Shown here: one piece after another, positions 10,908 to 29,539 of the stretch | Position numbering within the stretch: the stretch's first letter is position 1 | Layout of the letters: every line of letters starts with the position of its first letter | NCBI GenBank assembly: GCA_965204745.1 | Contig: OZ242010.1 | Span: forward strand, 1,664,001 to 1,728,000 | Direction: 5' to 3' | DNA length: 64,000 nucleotides | Origin: Candidatus Latescibacterota bacterium | Lineage (GTDB): Bacteria > Latescibacterota > UBA2968 | Translations under genes and position numbers: made by a program | The notes under the pieces: generated by a model | Database searches by the model: none | Told to the model about the DNA's origin: nothing | Seen by the model: the letters and a program-made list of their open reading frames with translations, nothing else

Positions 10908-10973
10908 GTCGTCTCCTTAGAATCAGTACTTAAAGGGTAGGCACGCAATATAGGGGTGGTGTCTCTGTGCGTT

Positions 10974-11751: not shown

Positions 11752-12044
11752 ACTTGCTTTCTCCTGTTTAGGGAATTTATTCGCCTAAAAAAAAAGGCAG
11801 TGATGATAAATCCATCTGATCCTACCTCACGATACGGTACGAGCAGAAATTTTCCAGACTCTATCTCGCGTACCGCGATCAATTCGCCTTGGTTACCCAC
11901 GAGGATTTTCAGGGGGTCTGTGACAGTTTCGAGGATTTCTTCCCGCATGCCTGCGAGTTCACAGTGTTCTTCTGTAATATGTGCCCAGCGTTCATCTGTG
12001 AGCCGGATCGGGATGCCGTTTAGCGATTGTGTGACTTCGTCCAT
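11733..12044 (-). CDS. Putative RelE/BECR-fold toxin (DUF4258-like partner of DUF2283)
   Basis: IRLTDERWAHITEEH...ETVTDP...VPYRE...GFIITAF; ~100 aa, overlaps the DUF2283 gene. Confidence 0.7.
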   Translation of the reverse strand: MDEVTQSLNGIPIRLTDERWAHITEEHCELAGMREEILETVTDPLKILVGNQGELIAVREIESGKFLLVPYREVGSDGFIITAFFFRRINSLNRRKQVWPLSQ

Positions 12045-12066
12045 GAATAACCATCGTAGTTCATGT

Positions 12067-12558: not shown

Positions 12559-12772
12559 CGATGATCTCCCAGAATTTTGATGAACAAGGTGCTGACCGCT
12601 TAATATGCGTTTCAAAAGCGACTTGTCAATTTTTTTGTTTCGCAAAGCGGAACGGGGTACAACTGGCCGTTTTTCAGACCCAGTTCATCAGCAAAGGGCA
12701 TACGGATTTTGGGGCTGTTGGGCGGCCCTCTCCCGTCTTACCTCTCACCTCTCCCGTCTTGCCTCTCCCCTC

Positions 12773-13762
12773 TCACCATTCAAATACCACGCCCAAGGCT
12801 TCTGTTGGATCGTCGGCGAGCATGTCGAAGGTGGTCTGGCAATCGGCGGGTTTTGCGATATGGGTTATCAGGTCTTCAATGGGCAACTTGCCCGCGGCCA
12901 TCAAGCGCAAGACCAACTCGCGGTCCCTGCGCTTGTTCCAGGGATAGTAGATGTGCTCATCGTCCGGCGTTTTGGGCTGGTGCGCGCCTAAAATGGAGAC
13001 TTCGCGCTGGTGAACTTCGGGCAAAAAGCTCACTTCCACTTTGCCGCGTGGAGACCCCAGCGCGACCAGTCGCCCACCCAGCCGGGGCAAAGAGAGTGCC
13101 GTGGGATAGACTGCGGGGATGCCAGTCGCTTCAATGACCAGGTCCACGCCGTCGGCGGTGCCGTGGTCGCGCACGGCTTGGGCGACATCGGCTACGGCAT
13201 GGGGATTGAGACAGACATCTGCGCCCCGAGCACCGGCCCTGTCCAACCGGAAGGGGTTTATGTCGATAGCAATGACCGGCAAGGCGCCGGCCAAGCGGGC
13301 AAAGGTGGCCGCCAGTTGGCCCACAATGCCCATGCCGGTGATCGCGACGACCTCGCCCAATTCGGGACGGCCGACCCGGTGCCCGTGCAGGGCAATGGCG
13401 CACATGACCATAAAAGCCGCGGATTTGGGGGACACGCCCGCAGGCACTTGAAAGAAGTTCTGGGTCAGGACCGCGTGGTGCGCGTGATTGCCCTGCCCGG
13501 CGACGCGGTCGCCGGGTTTGACATTTCGCACGTCTTTGCCGACTTCGAGCGCGATGCCCGTGTTGCAATAGCCGGTTGGGCGCGGGAAGGTTCTCGGCCG
13601 GGATGGCTCGCCCCCGTGTGCGTAGTTGTAGATTTCCGTGCCGACGCTGATGGCGGTGTAATCGTTTTGCACCAAGATGCCGTGGGCCGGCAGGCGCGGC
13701 AATTCAAATTCCCGCAATTCGATCCGCCGAATGCCCGTGCAGACCAAGCGTTGCGATTTCAT
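12773..13762 (-). CDS. MDR-family (zinc-binding-type) alcohol dehydrogenase
   Basis: AISVGTE, TGYCNTG, GDRV, GMGIVG Rossmann motif, DLVIEATG, LITH. Confidence 0.9.
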   Translation of the reverse strand: MKSQRLVCTGIRRIELREFELPRLPAHGILVQNDYTAISVGTEIYNYAHGGEPSRPRTFPRPTGYCNTGIALEVGKDVRNVKPGDRVAGQGNHAHHAVLTQNFFQVPAGVSPKSAAFMVMCAIALHGHRVGRPELGEVVAITGMGIVGQLAATFARLAGALPVIAIDINPFRLDRAGARGADVCLNPHAVADVAQAVRDHGTADGVDLVIEATGIPAVYPTALSLPRLGGRLVALGSPRGKVEVSFLPEVHQREVSILGAHQPKTPDDEHIYYPWNKRRDRELVLRLMAAGKLPIEDLITHIAKPADCQTTFDMLADDPTEALGVVFEW

Positions 13763-13773
13763 TTTTCGTTCTC

Positions 13774-15096
13774 CTATGGGGGATCGACCGGGACTTTCTG
13801 GCGTTTTGGAATGAGGGGATCGTAGGTAAAGCCCTCGGTTGCCTTTTCAAATTCCGCGCGGGCCGCTCGCAACTGCTCGGGGTTCGAGATCAGATCGATG
13901 GCCGATCCGGCAAAGACTTTGGCCGTTTGCAAAATCGCGCGCTCGGCAAAGGGCATGGCGGCTTGGGCGGTCATGTCTCGGTGATGGCCCGGCGTGCCCT
14001 TGGTATAGCACACCATCTGAAACCGGCCCATCGGCGCGAGCCACGACACATTGTCTTCATCCGATGAGCCGCGCCCTTGCGACCCCTTGCCCGTTTTGAT
14101 TTTCCCATCAAATTTGCCTTTGTACCCGAGTGCCTGCACGCGCTCCTCGTCTTTTTTGGATGCACGCGGCGGGCCGAATAATTCGAGGTTTTGGCGCACG
14201 GTTTCACCCATGGCATCGTTTGGCAACCGGGGATAGACAGCCGTGATCCGATGCCATTTCATCGTGGTTTCCGTGGCCATGGCCGCGCCTTTGGCGCATT
14301 TGGTCAATCGCTTGCGGATCTCATCGACCTGTGCGCGATCTTTTCCCCGCACGTAGTACCACACTTTCGCGTAGGCCGGCACCACATTGGGCGCGTCGCC
14401 ACCATCGCGGATCACGCAGTGAATACGCACGTTTTCGGGGACGTGTTCGCGCAAATAATTCGCCGCAATATCCATCAACATCACGCCGTCCAATGCGCTG
14501 CGCCCATGGTGCGCGCTCGCGCCGTGAGACGTTTTGCCAAAAAATTCGTACACCAGCGAATCCAGCGATGAGCCTCCGCGGTTGTTCACGCCCGTACTCG
14601 TTCCCGGATGCCACGCGAGCACCGCGTCCAAATCGCGGAACGCGCCATCGCGGGCCATATAGACCTTGCCGGACAGGGTCTCTTCGGCCGGGCAGCCGTA
14701 ATAGATGATCTGCCCGGGGGATTTCAAATTTTCCAACACTGCTTTTGCAGCGACCGCACCTGCGGCCGGGGCAACGCCCAACAAGTTGTGGCCTCAGCCG
14801 TGCCCCCATGTGCCTTCCTCAGCACCGCAGTTGGGCAATGCGTCGTATTCGCCCAACATGCCAATGGCGGGCTTGCCCATCCCCCATGTGGCGCGAAAGG
14901 CGGTTGGGATGTTTTTGAACGGAAATTCGATTTGGAATCCATTGTCTTCCAAATAGGTCGCCAATGCCTTCGACGATTCGCGTTCCCGAAAGGGCCGCTC
15001 GGCCCAGCCGTGAATTTGCCTGGACAGATCAAACGCCCGTCGCGATTGGGCTTTCACCGCAGGGTTGACCCGTGATTTTTTGGTTTTCGCATCCAT
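13774..15096 (-). CDS. M20 family amidohydrolase (AbgB-like) with in-frame TGA at 14794-14796 in place of the conserved Cys; probable selenoprotein
   Basis: Two ORFs in one frame join as LGEYDAL...GHG[TGA]GHNLLG...GCPAEE...WHP...GSSD; family motif is GHGCGHN; hairpin downstream of the TGA. Confidence 0.85.
14745..14774 (-). promoter_or_regulatory. Candidate bacterial SECIS element
   Basis: mRNA UUGC-CC-CGGCCGC[AGGU]GCGGUCG-CU-GCAA; apical loop begins 32 nt after the UGA and contains G. Confidence 0.65.
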
Positions 15097-15110
15097 GATG
15101 GCAGTCCTTT
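15031..15110. repeat. 80-bp direct repeat (RBS and 5' end of the M20 gene), copy A
   Basis: 79/80 identical to 18238-18317. Confidence 0.95.
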
Positions 15111-15120
15111 TTGTTGGCGA

Positions 15121-15162
15121 TTACTCCCGCACCGAGTTGACAAGTCGCGCGATGATTTCATT
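15121..15162 (-). pseudogene. Displaced 3' tail of the serine hydrolase gene (NEIIARLVNSVRE*)
   Basis: 15142-15162 is identical to 26129-26149; the current gene ends NEIIARLIDAVKK*. Confidence 0.8.
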
Positions 15163-15169
15163 GATGAGT

Positions 15170-17119
15170 TCAACCGAGATTATTTCCCGCCTTTTGCTTT
15201 GCTTCTCGAAGTTGATCGTATCGCTTTAGAAATTCTTTGTGTGCTCGTTTTACCATGGCGAGTAAATCTATGTACCTTCTGATGTAGATTTGCGAATTTG
15301 CTAAAATTTTCCTTTTTCCTCTCACTTGATAAGTGCCCACCAAATCTCCACAAAGGAGATATCCGGTGACGGCCTCGTACTGATAATCGAGATCCGTCGT
15401 CTGTTGAATGTTCTCCCGCATGAAGATAACGTACTCTTCAATTTGATCGAGTTCCTTCACAGAAGCCTTTGACCGCGGGCGTTTGATTTCCACTACGACT
15501 AAGTTCTTATCTTCTCGCACGCAGAGGAAATCAATGCGTCTGTCGCTTTCCGGGGCGTCGCTATTTTCCGGGAATTTGTCGCGCAGTAAGTCGCTATATC
15601 TCACCTCGTCATCGACCAATGTCCAACGCGGGTCAATCACCCACGGAAATTCTTTTAAGAAGTTGTGGAGCGTCGGTACTTCTAACGCATTGTTCTCAAT
15701 CAATTTTTGAAGTTTTTCAATTGTCGTGATTCGCCCTTGAGTCACCCTTGCCATTTCCTTTGCTTCGACAATTTCCCATTCCCGAAATAAATTGAGGAGT
15801 TTTTCGGTGTCCTCAAACTCCGTTTTCGTCAAGTCTTCAGCGATTTCCCAAAAAGCATCAAACTCCAAAAAATCAAGGGAGGTTTGGATGATGGGTTCGA
15901 GTTCCGCAACCTCGGCAATCGGATTCTTGTCAATCGCTTGACGCACCAATTGATCTGCCAACTTCAATGCCCGCTTATTGCCAATCTCCTCTGCTCGTTC
16001 TCGGAACTCGCCATAGACCGCGTTTTCTTCCAATTGCCGTTCATTATCTTCGCGGCGTTTCTTCGACCACTCCCGAGCAATTCGCTTGACCTCTTTATCA
16101 CCCCACTCCTTGAGAGCCGTATTCGCCTCCGTATCCCATACCAATGAGTTGCGCGTCGTTCCGATTGTATCTTCTCCTTCATCGACAAACTCGACGTGAA
16201 GTTCTCCAATGAGGTAGGAAAGCGCGAACTGTTGGCCGACAACCGCTTCAAAGACAAACGGCTCTTGGACCAATTTTCCTCTCGCCATCAGAACGATTCC
16301 GCGGTCTATCCCATCGATATCCGGCGTTGTGCGATTGAGCGCGCCAATCCAACCCGATACGGTCCAGCCCGTTTGGGGTTGGATTTCCTCTTTATCGTAT
16401 TCCCACAAATACGGCGCATCGTTCATATCTTTGTCGAGCAGGCGTTTCAAGTCGCGGTCTTCAGGCGAGATTGGAATCCCGTTAATCGCGACCTCAAAGT
16501 TTTGTCGCGCCCCAATGACAGCGAATCGCCTTGCGAGCCCTCGGCGGATTCTTTGAATCGAAATGCGGCGGGTTTGAAATTTTGTGATGTGTCTGAGGAT
16601 GACTTTTGTGCCTTTAGAGACAGTGCCAGTAGAAGCCAATGGCGGAAATTCGATTTTGCGCTCATCCGCTTTTTCCAACAGTTCGTCGTAGTTCATGCTG
16701 AAATGGCTGACTTCGCCATCTTTCACACTTTCAACATCGATCTCTTTGGCGATGCCAAACGCCGAGAACTTACCGATGCCTTTTCTGCCCATGATTTTGC
16801 GGCTGTGCGGAGGAGGCGTCTCATCGGATCGCTCATTTTCGCGCCGGTCTCGACCGATAATGAGGTATTTTTTTCGCACATCCCCATCTGACATGCCCAT
16901 GCCATCATCGCTGATGACGATTTCAGAGGTTTGTTCGTCAATCGGCGTTTCGGGTATGGTAATCTCGACCTTGGTTGCGTTTGCATCCCAACCGTTGGCT
17001 ACCAATTCCCCGATGACTGGCGGCAATGTCGAGTACATCTGCAAGCCGAGGTGCTTAATGGTATAAACGTCAAATTCCATCCGATATGGGGCTTTGGAAG
17101 CGACTGCGCGAGTACCCAT
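15170..17119 (-). CDS. GHKL/MORC-type ATPase fused to a C-terminal PD-(D/E)XK nuclease (R-M associated)
   Basis: ELVANGWDA, DDGMGM, GRKGIGK, GT motifs; C-terminal RRIDFLCV...VVVEIKRP...QIEEY. Confidence 0.85.
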   Translation of the reverse strand: MGTRAVASKAPYRMEFDVYTIKHLGLQMYSTLPPVIGELVANGWDANATKVEITIPETPIDEQTSEIVISDDGMGMSDGDVRKKYLIIGRDRRENERSDETPPPHSRKIMGRKGIGKFSAFGIAKEIDVESVKDGEVSHFSMNYDELLEKADERKIEFPPLASTGTVSKGTKVILRHITKFQTRRISIQRIRRGLARRFAVIGARQNFEVAINGIPISPEDRDLKRLLDKDMNDAPYLWEYDKEEIQPQTGWTVSGWIGALNRTTPDIDGIDRGIVLMARGKLVQEPFVFEAVVGQQFALSYLIGELHVEFVDEGEDTIGTTRNSLVWDTEANTALKEWGDKEVKRIAREWSKKRREDNERQLEENAVYGEFRERAEEIGNKRALKLADQLVRQAIDKNPIAEVAELEPIIQTSLDFLEFDAFWEIAEDLTKTEFEDTEKLLNLFREWEIVEAKEMARVTQGRITTIEKLQKLIENNALEVPTLHNFLKEFPWVIDPRWTLVDDEVRYSDLLRDKFPENSDAPESDRRIDFLCVREDKNLVVVEIKRPRSKASVKELDQIEEYVIFMRENIQQTTDLDYQYEAVTGYLLCGDLVGTYQVRGKRKILANSQIYIRRYIDLLAMVKRAHKEFLKRYDQLREAKQKAGNNLG

Positions 17120-17137
17120 AACATGTCTCCTTCAGCA

Positions 17138-18163
17138 TCAACGCGAATCGGTAATTGATTTGCCCAACTGTTCTGCGAGTTTCACCGGGACAGCGTTGCC
17201 GATTTGACGAGAACAAGAAATCAAAGATGAACCGAAAAACTCGTAATCGTCTCCAAATGTTTGCAAGGCAGCGGCCTCGCGTAAGGAAATGCCCCTGTCT
17301 TGCTCGGGGTGTATAAAGCGACCACAATAAACATCGGTGCAACGACACGTCAACGTCGGACTCGGCTCATCCCATGCCATCCGCCCAAACACATCTTTAT
17401 GGGCGTTTGGTCTCTTTTGGTGACAGGGTAACAGAATAGAGGTGTCGGTCACATCCCGCCGACTGCCGCCGTTTTTGGGGATGGCTAAGACGATGCGTTT
17501 GTGGTGCGGTTGCAGTTTTCTGGCGACGTGATTCGGATGGGCCTTTGATGCTTCGCCATCGGCAATTGCAGGGTACTTTTCAATGCACGCCCGCACGGTT
17601 GACATCCGGCTTGGATCTGTTTGTGGCTTATGTAGAGAGATTGCCCCGTGTCTGGATGCCACGAGGATGAATCTCTTGCGCGTTTGCGGAACGCCGAAGT
17701 GTTTCGCGTCGAGCAAATCCGCCGCCGCCGAAAAGCCGCACCTTTTTAAGGTCGATAGAAATTCTTTGTAGATTTCTTTTCCGTGAGCTTTATGTAGCCC
17801 GGGGACATTTTCAACGAGAATAAAATCAGGAGGGCATTTTTTGATGATTTTTGCAAAATCCAATAGGAGTATTTTTCGTTTGTCTTTGCCTTTCTGCCTG
17901 TTGAGTGTAGAAAAGGGTTGGCAGGGCGTACACGCCGCATAAAGGATGAGGTCTTGCGGCTGGATGCCGAGTTCTTCCCGAAGTGCTTCAATCTCAATAT
18001 CATTGATGTCGCTGGCAATAAAACGACTGGGCTTGTTATTGTGCGTGTAGGTCTGTTGCAAGCGTTCATCATTGTCCACGCCTGCCAACACCGAGATGCT
18101 GGCATTCAACAACCCCCTCGTTAAACCACCCGCTCCGCAAAAGAAATCAATGGCTTTGATCAT
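17138..18163 (-). CDS. C5 DNA cytosine methyltransferase
   Basis: FFCGAGG, PCQPFS, ENVPG, PQTRKR, REAAALQTF, QIGNAVP. Confidence 0.96.
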   Translation of the reverse strand: MIKAIDFFCGAGGLTRGLLNASISVLAGVDNDERLQQTYTHNNKPSRFIASDINDIEIEALREELGIQPQDLILYAACTPCQPFSTLNRQKGKDKRKILLLDFAKIIKKCPPDFILVENVPGLHKAHGKEIYKEFLSTLKRCGFSAAADLLDAKHFGVPQTRKRFILVASRHGAISLHKPQTDPSRMSTVRACIEKYPAIADGEASKAHPNHVARKLQPHHKRIVLAIPKNGGSRRDVTDTSILLPCHQKRPNAHKDVFGRMAWDEPSPTLTCRCTDVYCGRFIHPEQDRGISLREAAALQTFGDDYEFFGSSLISCSRQIGNAVPVKLAEQLGKSITDSR

Positions 18164-18239
18164 GGCATACCTTTCAAATTCTCAACCAAGCCTTGGAATG
18201 CTTTATCCAACAACCCCAACCCCGGCAACCCCTCCACAA
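18160..18239 (-). pseudogene. Displaced 3' tail of the type IIG/ISP-like R-M gene (VEGLPGLGLLDK...GMP*)
   Basis: 18215-18239 is identical to 23033-23057; its TGA overlaps the methylase ATG (ATGA). Confidence 0.8.
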
Positions 18240-18317
18240 ACGCCCGTTGCGATTGGGCTTTCACCGCAGGGTTGACCCGTGATTTTTTGGTTTTCGCATC
18301 CATGATGGCAGTCCTTT
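18238..18317. repeat. 80-bp direct repeat, copy B
   Basis: 79/80 identical to 15031-15110. Confidence 0.95.
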
Positions 18318-18535
18318 CATGTCTGTACAAAGATAGGCTCACGGATCACATCTCGAATTTCCGCAACGGACTCTTCAGCGAGCAGGCGATTGGCTTCAAG
18401 GGTCATTGCGATTGCCTCTCGAATATTGACCCGAACTTCATCGAGCGTCTCCCCTTGCGTGTTCGCGCCGGGCAATTCTTCGACAAATCCAATATACCCT
18501 TCCGAGACTTTTCTATAAACTGCGGTGAATTTCAT
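18317..18535 (-). CDS. hicB: HicB family antitoxin, orphan
   Basis: YIGFVEELPGANTQGETLDEVRVNIREAI; AAGGAG RBS; no hicA adjacent. Confidence 0.9.
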   Translation of the reverse strand: MKFTAVYRKVSEGYIGFVEELPGANTQGETLDEVRVNIREAIAMTLEANRLLAEESVAEIRDVIREPIFVQT

Positions 18536-18609
18536 GTTGGAAATCTCCTTTCGCGTTGTCTCGATCTACTGACGCTACGCACAACTTCACATATGCGTTG
18601 CTTGTCTAA

Positions 18610-18880
18610 AGCGTTTGGTCCTATAGCATCGTTTATTGCCTTTGATGCCTTCGGCGACCTACTTTTTTTCTACAGCAAAAAAAAGTAGGCGAGCGGGGTA
18701 CAACTGCCCCAGCAGTTCAAAAATGCCGCTCTCAAACGCCGAGAGGCTTGCACAGCGCAAATCGCTTTTGTAATCGCACGACATGCGCCAGCCTGCAAGG
18801 TGGGTTGCATAATGGAGGTTGGTTGCGAAACGGACTTGCGCGCTGTGCCTGATGGCTTTTTCCGATGGGTTTTTTGATGG
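18610..18880 (+). mobile_element. MITE-like element copy 2 (core only, carrying a 28-bp mini-element insertion)
   Basis: Aligns with 6110-6355 and 50311-50556; extra GAGCGGGGTACAACTGCCCCAGCAGTTC at 18691-18718. Confidence 0.8.
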
Positions 18881-18883
18881 CAT

Positions 18884-20377
18884 TCACCGTGAGTAGTCCG
18901 ATGGATTTTTCATGTTACCATTGATCACAAATACAAATGCCTTAGATGGAAAATCTTTGGCTATATCGTCTCCCCCATGAGTCTCGACATCAGTAAGAAT
19001 AATATCGTTCCGAATGTCGCCGGGGGGCTTATCTTTGGTCGTCAGGTCGAGTACGAGAAGGATGCTGACTTGTCGGGCTTCGACGCCTGCATATTGAGTA
19101 GCTTGGGCTGTGTACTTTTTCGAGATGTGCTCTCGGGCACCGTTTTCCTTTTCGACTTTTAGTTCGACAATCACTCCGCAATACCTAATATCTGTGACGC
19201 CCCCTGCTTGGCTTGAGTGTTCTTGTACATCCTGTCCGAGCACATTCCGGAGATCTCGAAGCACTCTTACTTGGAACTTAGCCTCCGATACATCACTCCG
19301 TCCCTTGTAGATTGCTTCTTGAGCATAAGTAGCCAGCAGACGAGTGAGAGCCTGAAGCATCTTTAACAAGTCAGGAAGTTCATAGCGGACTTTGGGACAG
19401 TCTGAAAGCAGTCTTGTGGCAAGTTCGTTAATGTGTTGATCCAGTCTCCGGTTGCCTGTCATCAGGGGATGCCTAGCTTCATTAACAACTTTGAGACGCA
19501 ACTCATTGTGCCCAATTACGGGGAGTTTAATGAACTTTCCGTCGGACGTTTCAAATGCGCCACGAACTGTAAATACAAGATCATCTAGACCGCTACTTTG
19601 CTCTGAATTGAACTTAATTTGTCCTGCTAATTCCCCCCGATACTCGCCATTTTCAACACTACCCGGTGCGGGCAGCACAAATTTGGAAATCGAGAACTCG
19701 GTTGAGGGACACGTCGTAAGCAAGTCAAGGTGAAGGCGAATCGCATCATTGGGCCATGTGAGGCCACGCACCCGAAATTCCAAAGGGTACAAAATATTGG
19801 GTTTTAAGAGTTGTGGACTTGCAAGCGGAGCATGATCCAGAAATACAATCACCCTCAACATCGGGCTTAGTGTAGCTACGGGTTCTTCTACCGCACCTTG
19901 ATATGGAAGATCCAATTTGCTTCTATGCCAGTACAAGATAGGTAGTGGGACTGCCAAGAGGAATGCACGCAGTCTGTCGGAATCGCATTGCCCTGTTTGG
20001 AACAATGATTGACGAATTGAATCCGCGATACCCGGCAATGTGAGAGTGTCCGACGAAATCCAACGTCGTAGCTCATCAACTAAGACATCGCATCTTGCAC
20101 GTTCCGCAACCAAGTCACCTTCACTACCTTGGGCAATTGCTACACAAGTAACTTGACTGACCAAGACACGTAGTCCGGCAACGACGACCTCCCACTCTAC
20201 AGGTACATACCCATCTGGCGTCTGTTTGATAAGTTTGTCAATCTGATCGACGAAAGTATCAACCTTCTGACACCATTCTACTTTATCATCAGTGTCCGAG
20301 TTCAAAATCGTGCGTATATCATGAATGAGTGCCACTGAATTAGAAGCATGATCAATATCCAACTTGGATTCCCACAT
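18884..20377 (-). CDS. Hypothetical protein with a C-terminal PD-(D/E)XK restriction-endonuclease-like domain
   Basis: GGVTDIRYCGVIVELKVEK...QATQYA; AT-richer than flanks; TGATG coupling to the upstream gene. Confidence 0.7.
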   Translation of the reverse strand: MWESKLDIDHASNSVALIHDIRTILNSDTDDKVEWCQKVDTFVDQIDKLIKQTPDGYVPVEWEVVVAGLRVLVSQVTCVAIAQGSEGDLVAERARCDVLVDELRRWISSDTLTLPGIADSIRQSLFQTGQCDSDRLRAFLLAVPLPILYWHRSKLDLPYQGAVEEPVATLSPMLRVIVFLDHAPLASPQLLKPNILYPLEFRVRGLTWPNDAIRLHLDLLTTCPSTEFSISKFVLPAPGSVENGEYRGELAGQIKFNSEQSSGLDDLVFTVRGAFETSDGKFIKLPVIGHNELRLKVVNEARHPLMTGNRRLDQHINELATRLLSDCPKVRYELPDLLKMLQALTRLLATYAQEAIYKGRSDVSEAKFQVRVLRDLRNVLGQDVQEHSSQAGGVTDIRYCGVIVELKVEKENGAREHISKKYTAQATQYAGVEARQVSILLVLDLTTKDKPPGDIRNDIILTDVETHGGDDIAKDFPSKAFVFVINGNMKNPSDYSR

Positions 20378-22974
20378 CAAGTTTCATCCTTTCCCTTTGT
20401 AAAATATGCTTCAGCCGCTACTGTGTCACCGGTTTGTAGTGATGCGTTTCCTGCGGCGATCATCGCGAGTTGCTGTAATTTTGTGCGAAATGCTTCATGT
20501 CTTGGTTCTTTTGCGAGAGCGTTGGTTGCGGTCTCCAATACATTTTGCTCGTATTGAAATGCGCGGAAGTGCGAGAAAAGGCTTGCGAAATGGCGTGATT
20601 CCCAAGCATCACGTTTGGCTAGTTGTAGGGCGGAAACCAAGAGGTCATCTGCTATACTCTGATACGTTGCGACTGGAAGTTGGTGTAGCCATTTGAAGAA
20701 TCGAAAATGTCCGTAGTAATTAGAGCGATCTCTGTCATGGTACGCTATATGCACACCAATGTCTTTGGCAACAAATTTAGCAATTTTTTCGTTTGGCTCG
20801 CAGAACCGAATCAGGTTTTCCGCGATCTTTCTATCTACAAAATATTCTTTAGTCGGAAAGACAGACTTGACCATGCGTAACGCCAATAGTTTGAGGCTCT
20901 CATCTCGGTGACCAATTTTCAGGATTGCATCGCAGATACCTTCGAGTTGATATTTATCATTATGATACACACGAAGGTGTGCTTCAAGACACTTAAGAAC
21001 TTCAAGTGGTTGCCTTTTATCAAACCACTTTGAACACCGAGCCACGGCTTGTCGCGCAGCTCGATGAACAATGACTTTCGGATCTTGTAGGTGAACGATA
21101 ATGGTGTCCACAAGATTTTGGGGTGGCATAGTGGTCGAAGAAGAGAACATCTCGACTGTTGCGTTTATTGCTTCAGCCCGCACCCAAGATGAATCGTAAT
21201 CCATCAACGTACGCCAAATCAAAGGTAGTACGCGTGTTTGGAGAGTATAGTTCTTGCCAAGTTCACCGAGCAACGATACACAGCACCCCTTGAATTCGTC
21301 CTCAAGGTGTGCTGACGGTTGGTTCAAACAGTTGAAGACAGAATCGAATGTCTCTGAAGGCTTGGCTTTGCAGAGTTCGTTCAAGCATCCCTGCAATCGT
21401 CTTTTGAATAAATCCCATTGTTGGATGCGCCCTAATTCTTCTAGCAACTGCTCAAGTTGAGTATCTTGCGTCTGAACCTGGTTAGGTAGCAGAATTTTGG
21501 GCGGTGAGGCAGGCGGAGGTTCCTCGCCACTAATGATGGCAAAATAACCGAGGAGAGAGTCAAAATGGTTCAGCATCTCTGCTGAGGCATCTTGACAGGC
21601 GATTTCCAACGCTTCAAATGCAGCGGCTCGAATATCGATCTCGAATCTGTCGTCCTTAGCCCATGAAAGTAACCGCTTAATTGCAATCTTCTCCTGTTCT
21701 GACACTTCAGTTCGGTTTCTATGATCCTGTCGTTCTTCCCAACTTACGGTCTGGTCAAAAAGTGGGCCTCGGTACACACGAATAATATCTTCTTGCACGG
21801 CTGGACGAACGCGGGTCATTGACTCGGCAAGAAACTGGTCAACTCTCTCTGGGGAATACCGAAACGCCGATTGCAAAATTTGGATAATCTGTTCTGATGG
21901 CTTCTCTGCACCTGACCGTGTATTTTCGTAAAATTCAAGTGATTGAACTAAGTCGCCAAGTAGATTCTCGGCTATCTGTGGTCGTTCGCGCTGAATGAGT
22001 TTGATCGTTCCACACAATTGGAAGCGTTCGGCCTCACTCTCGTTTTGTAGTTCGCGGCGAATAATGTTTTGCACACTCTCTGGGTCAGCGTCAAAATTTC
22101 GTACGATGACTGCGGTACTGTGATAGTAGCCAGATTCATCGTAGGCCCTATTACGAAAGAAAAGGTAGTGATCCTGCGAAAATATCAAGTGTTTGATACA
22201 TGCTTCACTGAGTGGATACTCAACGGCGTCACCGAGCGCGTTAAGCATTGCGGCAGACAACTCTGGAGATTGTCCTTTCACAATATTGTCAAAAGCTACT
22301 TGGCTAAAGCGAGGGCCTAACTCAGAGCGTTTGCTGGCGAGTGTTGTACAGACCGGAAGCATTAGTTCGGAAAATTCGGCGGAACCGGCAAGTAGCAAGA
22401 TCAGGTCAATAGCATCGTCCGGAAACAGATCTGCCCCCAAGAGTGCAGATTGTTGCAAGCGTTCGGATGCTTCCTTACGTTCGGTTTCATCTTCAGAAAA
22501 AAACTCCTCGAGATACTTAAGTATGCTGTAAGCTTCGGGTTCTGATTCCGAGCTGATCTCCCCGGATTTTATACGCAAATCAGAGCGGAGTTGGGATATT
22601 CGCTCCGCTTCTGTTTTGGTTGCTTGCTCGCGTTCTTGGACTTCTTTTTTGTTTTTTTTTATAATCTCTTGTCCCCAAGAAGTATCTCCATTAGGAGTAT
22701 GATGCGGACAAATGGCACAATGTTCTACAAGGAAATTGGAGAAAATCCAACGAAGATTCATGGACTCGTGCATGCCCTCTACTTTAGGGCAACCTATGCT
22801 ATGGCTTGCAATGGGAAGTCCTGTCCATTGTGCGTAAAGCCCTTCAGTGGTTCGCTCAATCTCCACATGTTTGCACCAACGCCGCATTTGGCGTATGCAC
22901 TCAGCATTGTCCTCGCCGAGCTTTATAGCTTGCTTAAAATCATCATCTTGAGTTTCGTCGAATCGTCGCATCAT
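20377..22974 (-). CDS. Large alpha-helical (HEAT/ARM-like) hypothetical protein with a Cys/His-rich N-terminus
   Basis: 865-aa ORF, AAGGAG RBS; WCKH, GCP, HCAICPHH near the N-terminus; Leu/Glu-rich helical remainder. Confidence 0.75.
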   Translation of the reverse strand: MMRRFDETQDDDFKQAIKLGEDNAECIRQMRRWCKHVEIERTTEGLYAQWTGLPIASHSIGCPKVEGMHESMNLRWIFSNFLVEHCAICPHHTPNGDTSWGQEIIKKNKKEVQEREQATKTEAERISQLRSDLRIKSGEISSESEPEAYSILKYLEEFFSEDETERKEASERLQQSALLGADLFPDDAIDLILLLAGSAEFSELMLPVCTTLASKRSELGPRFSQVAFDNIVKGQSPELSAAMLNALGDAVEYPLSEACIKHLIFSQDHYLFFRNRAYDESGYYHSTAVIVRNFDADPESVQNIIRRELQNESEAERFQLCGTIKLIQRERPQIAENLLGDLVQSLEFYENTRSGAEKPSEQIIQILQSAFRYSPERVDQFLAESMTRVRPAVQEDIIRVYRGPLFDQTVSWEERQDHRNRTEVSEQEKIAIKRLLSWAKDDRFEIDIRAAAFEALEIACQDASAEMLNHFDSLLGYFAIISGEEPPPASPPKILLPNQVQTQDTQLEQLLEELGRIQQWDLFKRRLQGCLNELCKAKPSETFDSVFNCLNQPSAHLEDEFKGCCVSLLGELGKNYTLQTRVLPLIWRTLMDYDSSWVRAEAINATVEMFSSSTTMPPQNLVDTIIVHLQDPKVIVHRAARQAVARCSKWFDKRQPLEVLKCLEAHLRVYHNDKYQLEGICDAILKIGHRDESLKLLALRMVKSVFPTKEYFVDRKIAENLIRFCEPNEKIAKFVAKDIGVHIAYHDRDRSNYYGHFRFFKWLHQLPVATYQSIADDLLVSALQLAKRDAWESRHFASLFSHFRAFQYEQNVLETATNALAKEPRHEAFRTKLQQLAMIAAGNASLQTGDTVAAEAYFTKGKDET

Positions 22975-23007
22975 TTTTTGATTCTCCTTAGCAGATGTTG
23001 CTACCTA

Positions 23008-26000
23008 TTATGCTTCTTGTTCTTCCTGCACACCCAACCCCGGCAACCCCTCCACAATCGCCGCTGTCTCTAAGCTCACCGCGATCACTTTGCCGATCAG
23101 TTTGACGATGTACTGCGGATCGGCCTCGCGGTTCGGGTCGTTGATTATGCCGCTTCGTTTGTCGGTCTTGACGCGGTATTGATCGATGACCCATTCGAGT
23201 GCCGAGCGGTTTCCGAGCCGATACTCAAATGCTTTGGGCGGAATCCCGTCGAGTGTCAAGAAGTCGTTGTACTCGATCTGCGTTTTGTCTTTGGACAAGC
23301 GCATCTTTTCCACGCGCCAGTCGAGCGGCGCGTCTGAATTTTCGATGAACTCGAGCCGATGTTCGGGTTGGGCTTCATAGCCGATGTGGAGTTCTGCCAA
23401 GCGTTGGCCGGCTTTGGCAAAGGCCCCAAAGTCCGGGGCGTAAGGGATGTGCGGCAGGTCGCGCTTGAGGTTGGCACGGTATCGCGCCCGGTATTCCGGG
23501 TGGTGGAGCAAGCCATAGACATAATGGAAGATGGCCCACTTATCAATCGCGTTGTCGCCGTAATGCGAGCGGAATTGAGCCAACGCCCAGTCGGTGATGT
23601 TCTCGCGGCGATTCGTTCCGTCCTCGTCGTAGGTGTAGAAGGGGAAACATTGAGTCCCGCCATTTGAGGAGTTTGAGAATTTTAACTCAACGATACGATC
23701 CGCTATAAGGCATCTGAAAACATCGTGCCCAAGTCCAGCAACACAAATGATCTGATTTTCCGTTTCTGTCTCAGGCGTGGGAAAGATGGAGGGGAAAGCG
23801 TAAACGCGCTCAGCCGTGAGTCTGTCAAAGTAGAGGTGCGATTTCGTGAACGGGCGATAGAGTGATGCCCTCATCTTTGCAGGCGAAAAATCAGCGGTTT
23901 TCCCTCGCTTTAAGTTCGCTTTCAGTGTTTCGCCCCACTTGATCTTTTCGTCATCATAAATCACAAAATCATCGACGTTTTCATTTTTGTTTTCATTTTT
24001 TTTAGACGCGCCCCACTTGAACACCTGCTCATTGTAGGTATCGATCATCCGCTCTATGTTTTCGGCGAGGGCGTTTGGGTTAAAGTTGTACGCCCACGCA
24101 TCGCGATTGGTTTTGACACCGCCGCTAAAGGTCCTAAAAATCACACCTTCAGCCCCGACCTTCGCCGCCTTTGCTTCCTTGCTTCCCATCGGGGTAAAGG
24201 TTTCAAATTCCGTCTGAAGTCCTTCCGTGAGCCAAGTGTGTCGCTCGTCCGGGTTAATCGTTTGCCACTCGATATTGTCGATGTGTTGCCGCTCGTTTAG
24301 GAAGTCGAATTTCTGCTTTTTGTTCCACAGGTCGTCGGTTCGGTAGTAAAAGATACGGGCTGTTTTTGATGGATTTTGTTTTACAAACAAATTGATGCTG
24401 ACCCCGACCCGAATGCCGAACACATTGGCATCCGCGACCTTCAATCCCTTGCGTGCATTCCCGCCCAAATCCAAAATGTAAATCGCGTCAAAATCGTCTG
24501 CGAGGTGTTTTCGCATGCCATCAAATGCCACGCCGTCGAGAAATCCGCTATTTGTCACAAAGGCGACAATGCCTTCCTCTCCGATCCGATCTGAAGCCCA
24601 ACGGATCGCTTTGACGTATGGATCGGCGAGGGCGTTTTTATTCGTTGCGTTGGACGCTTGCGAATAGGTTTCTCTGACCCGTGCATCTATCGTTTTGTAC
24701 TTCCGATTTTTGTTGTTGTCGTTCTCGTTGACCTGCCCCGCGTTGTAGGGCGGGTTGCCGACGATCACAAACATGTCAGTTTTCTTTTGTCGTTCAACCC
24801 GCGCCGTGTTCTCCGCTGTGAACAGGGCCAGTTCGCGTTCCTCTGCCAGTTCAAACGTATCGACCAAGCACAGCCCTTTATACGGCAGATAACGCCCCGT
24901 CGCCTCGTAGAACTCGTGCTCGATGTTCATAGACGCGATGTAATACGGCAACAGCATCACCTCGTTGCAGTGGAGTTCGGATGAGTACTTGTCCTCCAGC
25001 GCGGTTCTGCGAATCTCGCGCATCATGCGGACGATGAAATTGCCGGTGCCGACAAACGGGTCGATGATGTGAACGCCCGCGTCAGACAGGGAACGACCAA
25101 ACTCGGTCTTGAGGATGTGCTCAACGCTTTTCGCCATGAAATCGACAATCGGTTGCGGCGTATAGACGATGCCGTGCGTATCGGCGGCCTCCACCGAAAA
25201 GCCCTGAAAGAACTGCTCATAGACCGTGTTGAGGAAGTGCTGTTTTTGGGAGAAGTCATCGATGGTTTCCGCGGTCTGCTCAATCGCAACATAGAAGCGG
25301 TCAAGGCTTTTGAGAAACTCGTGGCGGTTAAACGATTGAGACGTGAGCGCGTCGATGACCTTTTCGATCTCGTTGGCGATAGCGTTGCGCCGCGTGAAAT
25401 CGGGGTTGCTGAAGACGGTTCGGAAAATCCGCTCGGTCAAGAGGTGTTGAACGAGCATCTCCTCGACAGCGGCTTCGGAGAGATTGGGGTTGATGGACTG
25501 ACGGCATTTTTCGTAGAAACCCGCAAAGGCCATCGTGAACCGGCGGTTGGTCTGTCGCTCCCGTTGGATCAACGCCGCCAACCCGCGCCCGATATCGGGC
25601 ACTTTGTCCTTGAACTGCGCGACGGCCTCTTCCCATTTGGCGATCTCTGCCGGACGATGGGAAAAGAAGGTCTCGAGCGTCTCGACAAGTCGCCTTTGAT
25701 CGGTCAAATCCGCGTCGAGAACGGGCGCGTCATTCTGCCACAGGATCGCCCGTTGGGGCGTTTGGAACAGGATGTTGTCTCGCGGATAGCCCGCCGCAAA
25801 CTTGTGTTGCACTTCGGCGTCGAGGTCGTCGTGAATATCCTTTGCTTCCCAATAGCCGTGCGGCAAGTTGAACGCGTCGATCAACGCGCCATCGACGACA
25901 ATCCGCTTATTGCCGCCGAGCGAGATGGCATGTTCGGGGACGAGTGTCCACGCAACTTGCCGAGCACACGATTCGAGCAGCGCATGAAACGCCGAGCGCA

Positions 26001-26100
26001 CGGCGGTTTCATGCGTCACGCCGAGGTGCTCAAATTCGCGGAGCGATTCGTAATACGCCCTAACGGGCTTGTGCGTGGGTTTGAGATTGAGCGTTGGCAT
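23008..26100 (-). CDS. Single-polypeptide restriction-modification enzyme (type IIG / helicase-less ISP-like): nuclease + N6-adenine MTase + target recognition region
   Basis: VDGAL...GYWEAKD nuclease motif; GIVYTP, IIDPFVGTGNF, VGNPPY; C-terminal GVKTNRDAW, YRPF, EYRLGNRSALEW. Confidence 0.9.
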   Translation of the reverse strand: MPTLNLKPTHKPVRAYYESLREFEHLGVTHETAVRSAFHALLESCARQVAWTLVPEHAISLGGNKRIVVDGALIDAFNLPHGYWEAKDIHDDLDAEVQHKFAAGYPRDNILFQTPQRAILWQNDAPVLDADLTDQRRLVETLETFFSHRPAEIAKWEEAVAQFKDKVPDIGRGLAALIQRERQTNRRFTMAFAGFYEKCRQSINPNLSEAAVEEMLVQHLLTERIFRTVFSNPDFTRRNAIANEIEKVIDALTSQSFNRHEFLKSLDRFYVAIEQTAETIDDFSQKQHFLNTVYEQFFQGFSVEAADTHGIVYTPQPIVDFMAKSVEHILKTEFGRSLSDAGVHIIDPFVGTGNFIVRMMREIRRTALEDKYSSELHCNEVMLLPYYIASMNIEHEFYEATGRYLPYKGLCLVDTFELAEERELALFTAENTARVERQKKTDMFVIVGNPPYNAGQVNENDNNKNRKYKTIDARVRETYSQASNATNKNALADPYVKAIRWASDRIGEEGIVAFVTNSGFLDGVAFDGMRKHLADDFDAIYILDLGGNARKGLKVADANVFGIRVGVSINLFVKQNPSKTARIFYYRTDDLWNKKQKFDFLNERQHIDNIEWQTINPDERHTWLTEGLQTEFETFTPMGSKEAKAAKVGAEGVIFRTFSGGVKTNRDAWAYNFNPNALAENIERMIDTYNEQVFKWGASKKNENKNENVDDFVIYDDEKIKWGETLKANLKRGKTADFSPAKMRASLYRPFTKSHLYFDRLTAERVYAFPSIFPTPETETENQIICVAGLGHDVFRCLIADRIVELKFSNSSNGGTQCFPFYTYDEDGTNRRENITDWALAQFRSHYGDNAIDKWAIFHYVYGLLHHPEYRARYRANLKRDLPHIPYAPDFGAFAKAGQRLAELHIGYEAQPEHRLEFIENSDAPLDWRVEKMRLSKDKTQIEYNDFLTLDGIPPKAFEYRLGNRSALEWVIDQYRVKTDKRSGIINDPNREADPQYIVKLIGKVIAVSLETAAIVEGLPGLGVQEEQEA

Positions 26101-26107: not shown

Positions 26108-27145
26108 TTATTTTTTTACCGCGTCGATAAGTCGCGCGATGATTTCATTTTGGCTGGCGGTCTCGTTGTTCTCTGCTCTGAACTGATCCCACAGGCCTGG
26201 GTTTTGGGCGATGACCAAACCCAATCGCGGGCATACCCAGATGTGTTTCGCGCCCGCGCCGGATGCGGCGAAGGAATCTCGGGGGGCGTCTGCCCATTGT
26301 TTCCCGTGGTCGTTGCACCAGAACCCGTGCCCGTAGTTCCAATTTTCTTCGGGTTCGTTTTTCAGGATGAAGGCATTGGTTTTGGTGGCTTCTTTGAGGT
26401 ACTTTTCCGGGGCGACCTGAACGCCGTTCCAGTTGCCGTAATTGAGCCACAAGTGCCCTGCGCGCAGTTGATCGCGCAACGTGGTATGCACCTGCGTGTA
26501 ATACCCGAAGATGTTGATCCGCGCATTGTTGCCCAGGTCAAAATTGGCGTGCGAATGCGTCCATGCCCCACCGATGGGATCGCGCATCTTTTCGTTGATC
26601 AACTTGCCACACCCCGGCGAACCCTCGGGATCGGTTGCGTCGTAATACCCGTACAGTTTGGCGATAGCGTGCGTGAGGATGTTCATGCCATACGTTTGAT
26701 AGTGAAAGACTCTGCCCGGTTTTTCCCCCGGTTTCATGTAGCCCGACACATTGCAGATGAGGTGCCGAAAGGTGATCTCGCGGTCTTTTTCAAACGCATA
26801 TCGCCCGGGCTTTGGGCCTTCTTGCTCGCCCACGTCCATCATTTCCGGATAGTAGTTGACGACGCGTTCATCGGGCGAAGACAATTTGCCCTCGGCGACC
26901 ACAATGCCCAAGAGCGTGGCGTAATACGACTTTGCGGCAGATGCCTGCGAATGCACAGAACCCCCTGCAATGCCTTGCCGCCACTCGGCAACGAGATAGC
27001 CATAACGCGCAATCCCCACCTGAAAGGGCCGATTGCCTGCCACCTCTTGCAACCACGTCTGCACCCGCGCGAGTTTGTCCGCATCAAAGCCGATATCCCC
27101 GGGCCTTCGCGCCTCCCACTCCGCATGTGGAAAAGTCATATCCAT
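26108..27145 (-). CDS. Serine hydrolase (beta-lactamase class C-like)
   Basis: ASAAKS (SxxK), ITFRHLI, FHY, YGHGFW, AASGAGAK; GAGGAG RBS. Confidence 0.88.
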   Translation of the reverse strand: MDMTFPHAEWEARRPGDIGFDADKLARVQTWLQEVAGNRPFQVGIARYGYLVAEWRQGIAGGSVHSQASAAKSYYATLLGIVVAEGKLSSPDERVVNYYPEMMDVGEQEGPKPGRYAFEKDREITFRHLICNVSGYMKPGEKPGRVFHYQTYGMNILTHAIAKLYGYYDATDPEGSPGCGKLINEKMRDPIGGAWTHSHANFDLGNNARINIFGYYTQVHTTLRDQLRAGHLWLNYGNWNGVQVAPEKYLKEATKTNAFILKNEPEENWNYGHGFWCNDHGKQWADAPRDSFAASGAGAKHIWVCPRLGLVIAQNPGLWDQFRAENNETASQNEIIARLIDAVKK

Positions 27146-27177
27146 CCCAAAAATCTCCTCGTATCGAGACAGGCGTA

Positions 27178-27501
27178 TTATTCGCCTGATAACGCGACAC
27201 CCTCTTTGCGAATATTCCGAAGCAGGGGACCGCGTTTGTTTTCGTAACGCTGGCGATCTACAAACACACAACTGATCACCACTTCGTTTTCCAAACAAAG
27301 ATCGGACACAATCCCACAGGTTCGCTCAATTTCCTCACCTGCATTTACAGGCCCATTCAATACGACGAGCACATCGATATCCGAGTCGGGCTTTGCATCG
27401 CCGCGTGCCCTCGAACCGAATAACACCATGCGCGCCAGACGATCACCGTAAAATATCTCAAAACGATGGCGCAATATTTGGAGAACGACTTTCAAATTCA
27501 T
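27178..27501 (-). CDS. Minimal nucleotidyltransferase (MNT antitoxin-like); no HEPN partner
   Basis: LFGSRARGDAKPDSDIDVLVV. Confidence 0.88.
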   Translation of the reverse strand: MNLKVVLQILRHRFEIFYGDRLARMVLFGSRARGDAKPDSDIDVLVVLNGPVNAGEEIERTCGIVSDLCLENEVVISCVFVDRQRYENKRGPLLRNIRKEGVALSGE

Positions 27502-27693: not shown

Positions 27694-29499
27694 TCATTTC
27701 GGCAAGACGTATCCGATCTTTCTGAGTGCATTGCGAAAGGCTGTCAGGGATTTTTCCGGCACGACCAGATGGCGGTCGCCTGATAGATGGCAATATTTTT
27801 TGACGCCTCGGTCATGCGCGAGAAACTGTGCGGTCTCGGCGTCTGTCACCTCGATCAAATGCGCTGTACCTTTGACGCTTAAACGCGATACTTTGCCGGC
27901 CATATCGTCAAACAGCACGGCCACGGGCTGTGGCAATTCCCCGCCGCTTTTGTGGGTGAGAAATGACCGCATCTGATCGAGCGATTGCCCGCTCTCCAAG
28001 CCTTTGAGCATCCGTTCGGGCCGAATGGTCCACACGTTGTCAGAAGTCTTGTCCGCGCATTGTTCCAGCGCGATCTGATCGCCCAACGGCAGGGGCTTCA
28101 AGGCGACCACATCGAAATTGGGCAACACTTTGAGCACGGGTTCAGCTTTCACTTCTGAAGGCGCGTAAGACCGCGTTTTGCCCAAACAAAAAGCCCCCAA
28201 CGCATTCACGCGCACATACATCAACCCATCGTAGCGACTCAAAAAATCGAGATCGCCCTCGTAGTCTTTGGGGCCATGTACGGGTTCAATGTATGCCACA
28301 TCGACAAGCCCCAAGGTCGCGGCATATTCAAACAGCAAGGCCATGGTGTAGCGGGATGTCAGCAAGGGCCAGTTGTCGGTCAAATGTCCATAGTGATCGA
28401 AAACATAAATCTCCCACGGCTCGTGCGACACGATCAGCACATGGCCGGCCGCACGCATGAAATTGCAAAAGCTGGCAAAATTGAACCACTTTTCCGTTGG
28501 GCATTGCCCGATTGCTTTGACGATCATCTCGCGCCGCTCTACCGGAGATGTCAGTCCCGATTTCCCAGGTCCAGCCTGCCCGCGCAAGAGATCGATTCGT
28601 TGCAACTCATCGATGGTTTTATTTTTTAGCCACGCCTGCCACATGGTCTTAATCGTTTCGTGAGGGGGCGCGATCAATGCCTTTCGCCCCGCGGTTGTCA
28701 AATGCAACTTGCCGCTTTTCAAACTCGCCAGTTTTGCCGCGTGAACCAACACCGGCCAAGCATAAGCCCTAATCGGACCGGGCAAGTCTTCCCACTTGTG
28801 GCACTTTTCGCGATCCAAATAAAAATCGCCGCCCGAAAGTGCCTCGCCAACAGCGCGAACACTGGCGGCTGTCGGGCGTTCCGTGATTTTACTCAGGCGC
28901 ACTTTGCCCGCGTCGACCAACCGCAATACGGCTATCAGTTCTTCTGGTGCTGCCTGCTCGGTGTCGACGCGATGAAGCGGGAACCGTTCTGCCTTCCCCT
29001 TGTTTGTCAAAAAAATATCGCGGATAATATCGACGGTTTCCGGACATTCTTCTTGAACCCGCAATTTTGCGGGCGGCGGTTTGGGCACAAATTTTTTCAA
29101 TGCGGCTTTCAAATCAGCGGGCACGACCTTCTGATCGCCGATATAATCATAGCGGGCATAGACAAAAAGAAACAAGTTGAGCAGGGAAGGCTCGCGAATA
29201 TAATTCCCCCAAGGGGCCGTTTCGCCCCAATCTGGATCTGTGCCATATTTGAGTCTAAACCCCAACTCGTCAAACCACGGCGCGTAAAGTGCTTCTGCAA
29301 CGGCTTTCTGTTGCACCTCGTCCAGCAGTTCCCAGTACTCGCGCGTGTACCCGAGCATCTCCTTGACGATGACGGCGATAATATCCGCCTTGCGCGTGGG
29401 CAAACGCGCGCCGGTCAACAAACGCGCGAGTTTCTTGAGTTGACCGACCACATGCCCGTTCAGAAATTCTGCAAGTGTTCCCGATAGAGGGTCTGTCAT
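27694..29499 (-). CDS. Helicase-associated domain protein (XPB-partner-like C-terminal domain)
   Basis: TRKADII N-terminus; LFEYAATLGLVDVAY, LSRYDGL; C-terminal VLPNFDVV...FLTHKSGGELPQPV. Confidence 0.7.
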   Translation of the reverse strand: MTDPLSGTLAEFLNGHVVGQLKKLARLLTGARLPTRKADIIAVIVKEMLGYTREYWELLDEVQQKAVAEALYAPWFDELGFRLKYGTDPDWGETAPWGNYIREPSLLNLFLFVYARYDYIGDQKVVPADLKAALKKFVPKPPPAKLRVQEECPETVDIIRDIFLTNKGKAERFPLHRVDTEQAAPEELIAVLRLVDAGKVRLSKITERPTAASVRAVGEALSGGDFYLDREKCHKWEDLPGPIRAYAWPVLVHAAKLASLKSGKLHLTTAGRKALIAPPHETIKTMWQAWLKNKTIDELQRIDLLRGQAGPGKSGLTSPVERREMIVKAIGQCPTEKWFNFASFCNFMRAAGHVLIVSHEPWEIYVFDHYGHLTDNWPLLTSRYTMALLFEYAATLGLVDVAYIEPVHGPKDYEGDLDFLSRYDGLMYVRVNALGAFCLGKTRSYAPSEVKAEPVLKVLPNFDVVALKPLPLGDQIALEQCADKTSDNVWTIRPERMLKGLESGQSLDQMRSFLTHKSGGELPQPVAVLFDDMAGKVSRLSVKGTAHLIEVTDAETAQFLAHDRGVKKYCHLSGDRHLVVPEKSLTAFRNALRKIGYVLPK

Positions 29500-29539
29500 A
29501 ACGAGACGTCCTCTTTGTGAATAGTCCGTAGTGGGAGTG

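Follow-up and report, generated by a model that had tools for sequence, protein, structure and literature searches.

What is encoded by a pair of overlapping genes lodged between restriction–modification (R-M) genes in a Candidatus Latescibacterota bacterium (assembly GCA_965204745.1)? The stretch of DNA analysed, called the window below, comprises 64,000 nucleotides (nt), positions 1,664,001 to 1,728,000 of contig OZ242010.1, and the two genes, A and B, occupy its positions 18884 to 22974. A first examination of the letters and their open reading frames (ORFs), the sequence-only reading, had proposed a sensor/effector anti-phage pair that could not be matched to a named system, and had itself counted a match to a described system as evidence against this view. 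Such a match was found, with Olokun. Protein B matches the PADLOC model of OloB, A and B are homologous to a pair (locus L024) positive for both OloA and OloB, and relatives of the pair, fused forms among them, match OloA and OloB. We conclude that the pair most likely belongs, as a divergent representative, to this named system and does not make a new kind of system: the locus probably encodes an anti-phage nuclease complex of the Olokun (OloA/OloB) family. The genes and their junction are as follows.

20377–22974, minus strand: gene A (oloA-like), 865 amino acids (aa), 99.4 kDa; from ORF and translation.
18884–20377, minus strand: gene B (oloB-like), 497 aa from the ATG at 20377, 55.6 kDa; stop codon at 18884–18886.
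20375–20379, minus strand: TGATG, where the stop of gene A overlaps the start of gene B; read from the sequence.

At this junction (cTTGATGtgg) the TGA of gene A (20379–20377) and the ATG of gene B (20377–20375) have one A in common; an alternative TTG start would make gene B 18884–20380 (minus strand, 498 aa). Overlapping or abutting A–B junctions are present in related loci too. Gene A begins 33 nt past the stop codon of a type IIG R-M gene, and a box AAGGAG stands 8–9 nt before its ATG. That these are two translationally coupled, AT-richer genes between R-M genes had been read from the letters alone, and the sequence, the annotation of the neighbours and the GC content (0.44–0.48 over 19000–22999, against 0.52–0.63 in most flanking 1-kb bins) agree with it. 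The window genome has one copy of the pair.

The naming of Olokun is attributed in PMC10121019 (in its accessible part) to Millman et al. 2022, and reviews, as far as the accessible text of PMC12926258 goes, list its mechanism as unknown. The accessible part of a preprint (bioRxiv 10.1101/2025.07.10.664194) describes PfOlokun as a 2:2 OloA–OloB nuclease complex, made of an adaptin-like OloA and of an OloB with an N-terminal helical domain; sensing of infection is not shown in that part. According to the same text, PfOlokun degraded DNA of T7, SECphi17 and SPO1 in vitro, only nicked plasmid and spared Escherichia coli DNA, 1 µM protein being needed, and a nuclease mutant lost complex formation. 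Phage protection and cleavage of phage DNA are reported for PfOlokun alone. How does the window pair connect to this system? Directly, B matches PADLOC OloB (PDLC03926) at 3.5e-6 in the protein search, residues 287–452 aligning with positions 213–455 of the 556 of the model, and at 1.9e-5 in the genome search; the match is weak and partial. A further connection goes through pairs positive for the Olokun models, which were drawn from 401 Pseudomonadota genomes (OloB being present at E<=1e-5 in seven) and from the genome that carries L001, a related locus in the genus of the window.

L021 type (L022 and L023 being partial): OloA of 568 aa, 9.9e-86; OloB of 579 aa, 4.9e-187.
L024 type: OloA of 851 aa, 3.4e-45; OloB of 481 aa, 7.9e-51; matches over nearly the whole PADLOC models.
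L025: proteins of 654 and 632 aa, a more distant pair.

In BLASTP, A aligns with L024-A at 6e-16 (22% over 691 aa), with the WCxH, C and CxxCxH motifs in register, and B aligns with L024-B at 6e-22 (26% over 365 aa), with AGGxTD..ELK and a C-terminal GN..PS..SR in correspondence. Profile A2, of the A family, reaches L024-A at 1.2e-38; profile A1, of the B family, reaches L024-B at 2e-32. The gene order, scaffold then nuclease, is also that of L021, L024 and L025. The models were then scanned against 66 of 150 listed representatives of the B family, picked by length: 41 of the 46 unfused B representatives matched OloB at E<=1e-4 (top values 6.9e-36, 4.3e-32 and 1.6e-23), and OloA was matched by 5/13 fused ones. 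One fusion, P0098, matches both models (OloA 5.7e-9, OloB 3e-7), and relatives of A match OloA in L040 (L040-A, 6.8e-7) and in the fused protein of L046 (9.7e-13). Judged by these scores, the family passes gradually into the Olokun of PADLOC. The published description of OloA and OloB, in the accessible part of the preprint, fits the architecture of L024 and of the window better than that of the L021 type. The mass of PfOlokun given there lies between the values derived from L021-type and L024-type gene lengths, so that mass alone does not decide the type; a blastn search of the Olokun DNA of L021 and L024 against E. coli genomes gave no match. Both kinds occur at separate loci of one Latescibacterota genome: L025 (G003:C32), which is positive for the Olokun models (OloB 4.5e-28), and L001, whose pair is of the present clade.

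Is the association of A with B conserved? Homologue searches (E<=1e-3, in a collection clustered at 90%) returned 133 homologues of A and 213 of B; among the 120 matches listed for each, identity ranges from 99 to 40% for A and from 99 to 48% for B, nearly all at full length. The B profile retrieved 538 representative clusters (50% identity) at E<=1e-3, 170 of them at E<=1e-30. With such numbers these are not chance ORFs. Gene A is followed by gene B in the seven genome loci, all seven, found with the A profile (in L004 the contig stops after the first 84 residues of B). The B profile led to 23 metagenome loci. Fifteen of them extend far enough upstream to be judged, and in all 15 a homologue of A comes immediately before B or, in L046, is joined to it in one protein; the remaining eight are cut at or within B. 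A thus precedes B in all 22 informative loci, most of which lie in defence islands. Moreover, among the best 150 of the 538 representatives, 16 are longer than 1200 aa and carry the B part at the C-terminus; 15 of these also match the A profile and are natural A–B fusions of 1201 to 1498 aa, P0098 (1394 aa) being 49% identical to A. Conserved order, overlap and fusions support a functionally linked pair, and the fusions, as sequences, argue for physical association of the two proteins. A complex prediction with A 11–865 and B 1–145, run without controls, scored 0.00, which gives no verdict either way. The clade is large and widely spread, its hosts including Latescibacterota, Caldilineaceae (Chloroflexota), Stieleria (Planctomycetota) and a Pseudomonadota metagenome-assembled genome. 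This spread is patchy: at E<=1e-10, B is present in 5 of 168 genomes of the phylum of the window (G000, included in the count), and in only 1 of 20 other genomes of its genus.

Protein A can be divided into three parts.

22699–22899, minus strand: Cys-rich module, residues 26–92, with C34, C62, C86 and C89, and with H92 and C26.
22546–22680, minus strand: single long helix, residues 99–143; DSSP of the AlphaFold2 (AF2) model.
20380–22539, minus strand: HEAT/ARM-like solenoid, residues 146–865; paired helices in the AF2 model.

The AF2 model, made with 35 homologues, has a mean predicted local distance difference test (pLDDT) of 87.5 and a predicted template modelling score (pTM) of 0.74. It is all-helical except for a small N-terminal module: a helix spans residues 2–33, and three short strands and a helix lie within 38–86. 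C34, C62, C86 and C89 are invariant in 35/35 aligned homologues, where H92 and C26 reach 90% conservation or more; nine of nine very diverse N-termini, among them an OloA-positive protein and a fused form, keep these four Cys without exception. The Cys motifs picked out in the sequence-only reading are therefore real, and the module is a probable zinc site. What had been described as a coiled coil is one predicted helix of 45 residues (99–143) between the Cys module and the solenoid. The HEAT/ARM-like helices proposed for the remainder are borne out by the model and by Foldseek, which retrieved HEAT solenoids: CAND1 at 6.1e-8, SF3B1, and the karyopherins transportin and Kap121p (TMq 0.20–0.36). 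Adaptin_N or HEAT_2 Pfam matches are also precomputed for some homologues of A. No Walker A motif was found in A or in B by a regular-expression search of both proteins, in keeping with the lack of an NTPase motif remarked upon earlier. Pfam and NCBIfam searches of A and B gave nothing above noise, and the ESM Atlas gave no usable match to residues 1–145 of A.

Protein B, modelled with less certainty (pLDDT 80.2, pTM 0.43), shows a different make-up.

19946–20377, minus strand: N-terminal six-helix bundle, residues 1–145.
19481–19933, minus strand: Ig-like beta-sandwich, residues 150–300.
18887–19483, minus strand: helical linker and PD-(D/E)xK-like nuclease module, residues 300–498; the part common to LmuA PDLC03853.
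19190–19192 (D397), 19163–19165 (E406) and 19157–19159 (K408), minus strand: codons of the putative catalytic triad, from motif conservation.

Two long helices are modelled at residues 311–354. According to DSSP, the C-terminal elements follow in the order alpha 366–381, beta 386–387, beta 398–400, beta 403–410, alpha 416–424 and beta 438–445. This order fits the alpha-beta-beta-beta-alpha-beta core of PD-(D/E)xK enzymes, with D397 placed before strand 398–400 and ExK inside strand 403–410. The PD-(D/E)XK pattern with which the protein had been said to end is there as GGVTD-x8-ELK: D397, E406 and K408 are invariant in 35/35 homologues, as are Q426, Q429 and Y430, and the D/E/K residues stay invariant in twelve of twelve diverse C-termini, among which are L024-B, itself OloB-positive, and two remote variants, L046 and L047. 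A nuclease fold of B is supported by motif, predicted topology and homology, and B would accordingly be the subunit that cleaves DNA. Faint leads point to DpnII-MboI (one of 12 members at 0.026; Atlas rank 22, score 0.84); in the ESM Atlas, residues 300–498 of B met unnamed clusters, with a top score of 0.93.

The same C-terminal part raises the question of Lamassu. Residues 300–497 of B match PADLOC LmuA (PDLC03853) at 5e-20, on model positions 445–653 of 655, and 45 of the 46 unfused B representatives scanned match it as well. This model does belong to genuine Lamassu operons, as in L055 (LmuC 1.9e-74, LmuB 2e-177, LmuA 2.2e-155) and, alike, L056. Membership of the pair in Lamassu was considered and rejected: neither LmuB, the SMC-like ATPase, nor LmuC stands beside it, its neighbours being R-M genes and a HicB-like gene. 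The SMC gene of the window (32470–36081), which has an SMC hinge, lies on the opposite strand at a distance of 9.5 kb. Different N-terminal parts can also precede the nuclease module of B, as in P0292 (566 aa, a protein with TPR repeats), P0291 (681 aa) and P0281 (1210 aa). Because the TPR protein P0292 also ends in it, the LmuA-like module is, on the basis of these sequences, a shuffled effector domain and not evidence of Lamassu.

Where does the pair reside? It lies in an island of about 11 kb, bounded by a gene of the beta-lactamase family (26108–27298) and by an M20 peptidase gene (from 15096), with housekeeping genes farther out on either side.

23008–26100: type IIG R-M enzyme, upstream neighbour of gene A; Type_ISP_C 9.9e-103, PADLOC REase_MTase_IIG 7e-243.
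18729–18745, minus strand: terminator-like hairpin and T-run, about 140 nt past the stop of gene B; weak, from a consensus scan only.
18320–18535, minus strand: HicB/UPF0150-like antitoxin gene, 72 aa, between gene B and the m5C methylase gene.
17138–18163: m5C methylase, downstream of gene B.
15170–17119: restriction enzyme of the BbrUII/HgiDII family, downstream of gene B.

The type IIG enzyme is complete, with an N-terminal D..EAK stretch, an ISP coupler, an N6 methylase and Type_ISP_C. No HicA partner was identified for the HicB/UPF0150-like gene, and the promoter and terminator scan of the region gave no more sites than its shuffled versions. The island holds copies of its own flanks (15030–15162, 18206–18317, 23024–23062 and 26118–26149): the 5′ end of the M20 peptidase gene recurs as an 81-nt repeat (99% identical), and the 3′ ends of the type IIG and beta-lactamase-family genes recur as repeats of 39 nt (87%) and 32 nt (91%), respectively. 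Such repeats suggest that the cassettes of the island were stacked through recombination at a single hotspot. In L003 a longer relic follows gene B, a 106-aa fragment of Type_ISP_C. The M20 peptidase gene (13774–15096, minus strand) is apparently split into an N-terminal ORF of 100 aa (14794–15096) and one of 336 aa (13774–14784). Just outside the island, a 622-aa protein (27694–29562, minus strand) matches Helicase_C_3 at 1.5e-6, below the gathering score, and has no PADLOC match; at some 4 kb from the island there is a gene for a PIN-domain (VapC-like) protein (10977–11399, minus strand).

The neighbours of related pairs were scanned at the genome loci (94 of 106 ORFs, the 12 omitted being ORFs of L007 that repeat the arrangement of L005) and at the 11 longer of the 23 metagenome loci. 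In L001 (G480/G003) a type I operon houses the pair between its hsdS and hsdR genes, as hsdM, HATPase_c_4, DUF433, AAA_15, hsdS, A, B, DarT, macro/DarG, M78+DUF4411, hsdR (2730–21848), and L064 (same order; 2914–19899) likewise reads hsdM ... hsdS, A, B ... hsdR. An insert of 1.5 kb, with an ORF of 559 aa (9850–11529), interrupts gene A of L064. In L002 and L003 a type IIG gene, 69% and 77% identical to that of the window, is directly upstream of the pair. The neighbours of L004 are housekeeping genes, and in Stieleria (L005–L007) the pair belongs to an island of integrase, primase and copper-resistance genes with an Mrr-like gene upstream. Seven of the 11 metagenome loci have clear defence neighbours:

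L028: OLD/GajA-like gene, type III genes, STAND protein.
L030: PDC-M45.
L031: GajB, Dsr2, PDC-S28, PDC-S13.
L032: TIR gene.
L040: Lit.
L046: capH/capP, SIR2 and Bil genes.
L047: type I R-M, AbiE.

In this 11-locus scan L033, L035 and L038 have no defence neighbours and L027 only weak candidate matches; among the genome loci, L001, L002 and L003 also have known defence genes. Co-occurrence or fusion of homologues in defence islands, which the sequence-only reading had put forward as a check, is thus found in the conserved order, in the 15 fusions and in the defence neighbours of 7/11 loci. The type IIG enzyme was considered as an obligatory third component and rejected, as only 2 of the 13 related loci whose sequence extends 1 kb or more upstream of A have it as a neighbour there.

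Several observations weigh against placing the pair in Olokun. The PADLOC OloA model has no match to A (protein search at E<=0.1, genome search at E<=10), so that A is placed in Olokun through transitive links; LmuA is a better match (5e-20) than OloB for the C-terminal module of B; and hhalign comparison with the Olokun alignments was weak for A (73%, N-terminus only) and null for B, these alignments being poor, with five sequences that mix two unrelated types. The nuclease module of B (385–497) is covered by no match in four fold searches of the B model (pdb, pdb_via_wide, viral and pdb_via), the matches being confined to residues ~3–303, because the helical and Ig-like domains fill the match lists. 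This module has no Pfam match either, nor a match to a PDB sequence; PDB sequence searches with profiles A1, A2 and A5 and with the LmuA and L024-B proteins gave no relative. Finally, the L021 type has no detectable similarity to L024 (BLASTP E>=0.68) or to the A and B profiles (E ~1): as far as sequences tell, the PADLOC Olokun models span two unrelated architectures. Should one then say that the pairs joining a zinc-HEAT scaffold to a C-terminal nuclease, those of the window clade and of the L024 type, are a defence family of their own, with the L021 type as the Olokun that was tested, and that the PADLOC models catch them only via heterogeneous seed alignments? The lack of similarity between L021-type and L024-type proteins favours this, and so do the L021-type OloA, which has no Cys module, the L021-type OloB, helical except for an N-terminal Mrr-like stretch of another kind, and the nuclease module of B, which is nearer to the LmuA model (matched by 45/46 representatives) than to OloB. 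We nevertheless hold it to be unlikely. The helical N-terminus of OloB and the adaptin-like OloA of the preprint's accessible part fit B and L024 better than L021, and the matches of L024 over nearly the whole models, at e-45 and e-51, make it very likely that such sequences are in the published family.

Another way to understand the locus begins with its R-M neighbours. The pair might be a guard, coupled to the R-M gene that precedes it, its nuclease firing when an anti-restriction factor of a phage disables the R-M enzyme; it would then resemble PrrC inside the EcoprrI hsd operon. Indeed, a mere 33 nt separate the type IIG stop from the start of gene A, and the pair comes right after a type IIG gene in the window, L002 and L003, after hsdS in L001 and L064, and after a type III-like gene in L028. 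However, just two type IIG and two hsdS genes are directly upstream in the 13 loci where this can be seen, and no R-M gene adjoins the pair in L004–L007, L031–L033, L040 or L046. The hsd operon of L001 also holds DarTG, AAA_15 and M78+DUF4411, and so looks like a general insertion hotspot, and PfOlokun, in the accessible account, was studied as a stand-alone operon. A guard of this kind seems very improbable to us. Quite improbable too, if a little less so, is the broader proposal that the zinc-HEAT clade is a functionally separate R-M back-up, whose solenoid senses the loss or inhibition of R-M, or an anti-restriction protein, and frees the LmuA/TPR-type nuclease module, with the name Olokun lumping two unrelated architectures; the repeated insertion behind R-M genes (three genomes with type IIG, two with hsdS inside hsdM...hsdR) speaks for it. 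Might the pair have nothing to do with immunity, and serve mobile islands as an addiction or maintenance module, or act in DNA repair as a nuclease and its scaffold? The Stieleria pairs in an integrase/primase island with copper-resistance genes, and the housekeeping neighbours of L004, would suit such a role. Against it stand the homology of the pair to a family with reported anti-phage activity, the predominance of defence genes among the neighbours and the lack of an antitoxin-like small partner of the pair's own, and we give it hardly any credence.

Returning to Olokun as the probable identity of the pair, what might it do? A and B would be made from one transcript, their translation being coupled, and would assemble, by analogy with PfOlokun, into a hetero-oligomer, a 2:2 complex having a mass of about 310 kDa (from 99.4 and 55.6 kDa). 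The solenoid of A, a 99-kDa HEAT scaffold with its Cys4 module, would hold the helical N-terminal part of B, and the two C-terminal nuclease modules of B would lie side by side, cutting phage DNA. The solenoid may restrain the nuclease, or target it, until infection; for the signal sensed, the Cys4 module and the long helix of A, and the Ig-like domain of B, are candidate sensing or targeting elements. In this way members of the clade would protect their hosts against phages. Of the anti-phage pair proposed from the letters alone, the linked pair, the D..ExK module and the defence neighbours in many genomes have stood; its status as an unnamed system has not.

By itself, the locus is ordinary defence-island cargo. 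Its interest lies in the clade of 538 representative clusters to which it belongs, and in the handles that this clade offers for work on Olokun: four invariant Cys in the scaffold, the D/E/K triad, A–B fusions that fix the pairing of the subunits, and a module shared with LmuA. For annotation, the Olokun models need a subfamily for these proteins; PADLOC would probably miss the window pair as an Olokun system for want of a direct OloA match. That pairs recur behind R-M genes is a lead open to testing.

How, then, does the pair compare with known systems? Like Olokun, it consists of two overlapping genes, scaffold then nuclease, in a defence island; A resembles OloA as a helical-repeat, adaptin-like protein that lacks an NTPase motif, and B resembles OloB in having an N-terminal helical domain and a PD-(D/E)xK nuclease, the latter predicted in B. 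It differs from the Olokun models in that A is not detected by that of OloA, and it is only 22–26% identical to the nearest model-positive pair fetched, L024. The L021 type stands farther apart, without a Cys4 module and with a nuclease-like stretch at the N-terminus of OloB, and its pair (568+579 aa) is smaller than that of the window (865+497 aa). With Lamassu the likeness is limited to the last ~200 residues of B, homologous to those of LmuA (PDLC03853) over the helical linker and the D..ExK module, whereas the rest of B and the whole of A are unrelated to Lamassu proteins. As for PrrC, it is an anticodon nuclease, an RNase with an ABC-type NTPase domain, whose gene sits within the type I hsd operon of EcoprrI. 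The window pair is not known to be related to it in sequence. In gene position the pair of L001 and L064 is like PrrC, as an extra nuclease cassette between hsdS and hsdR.

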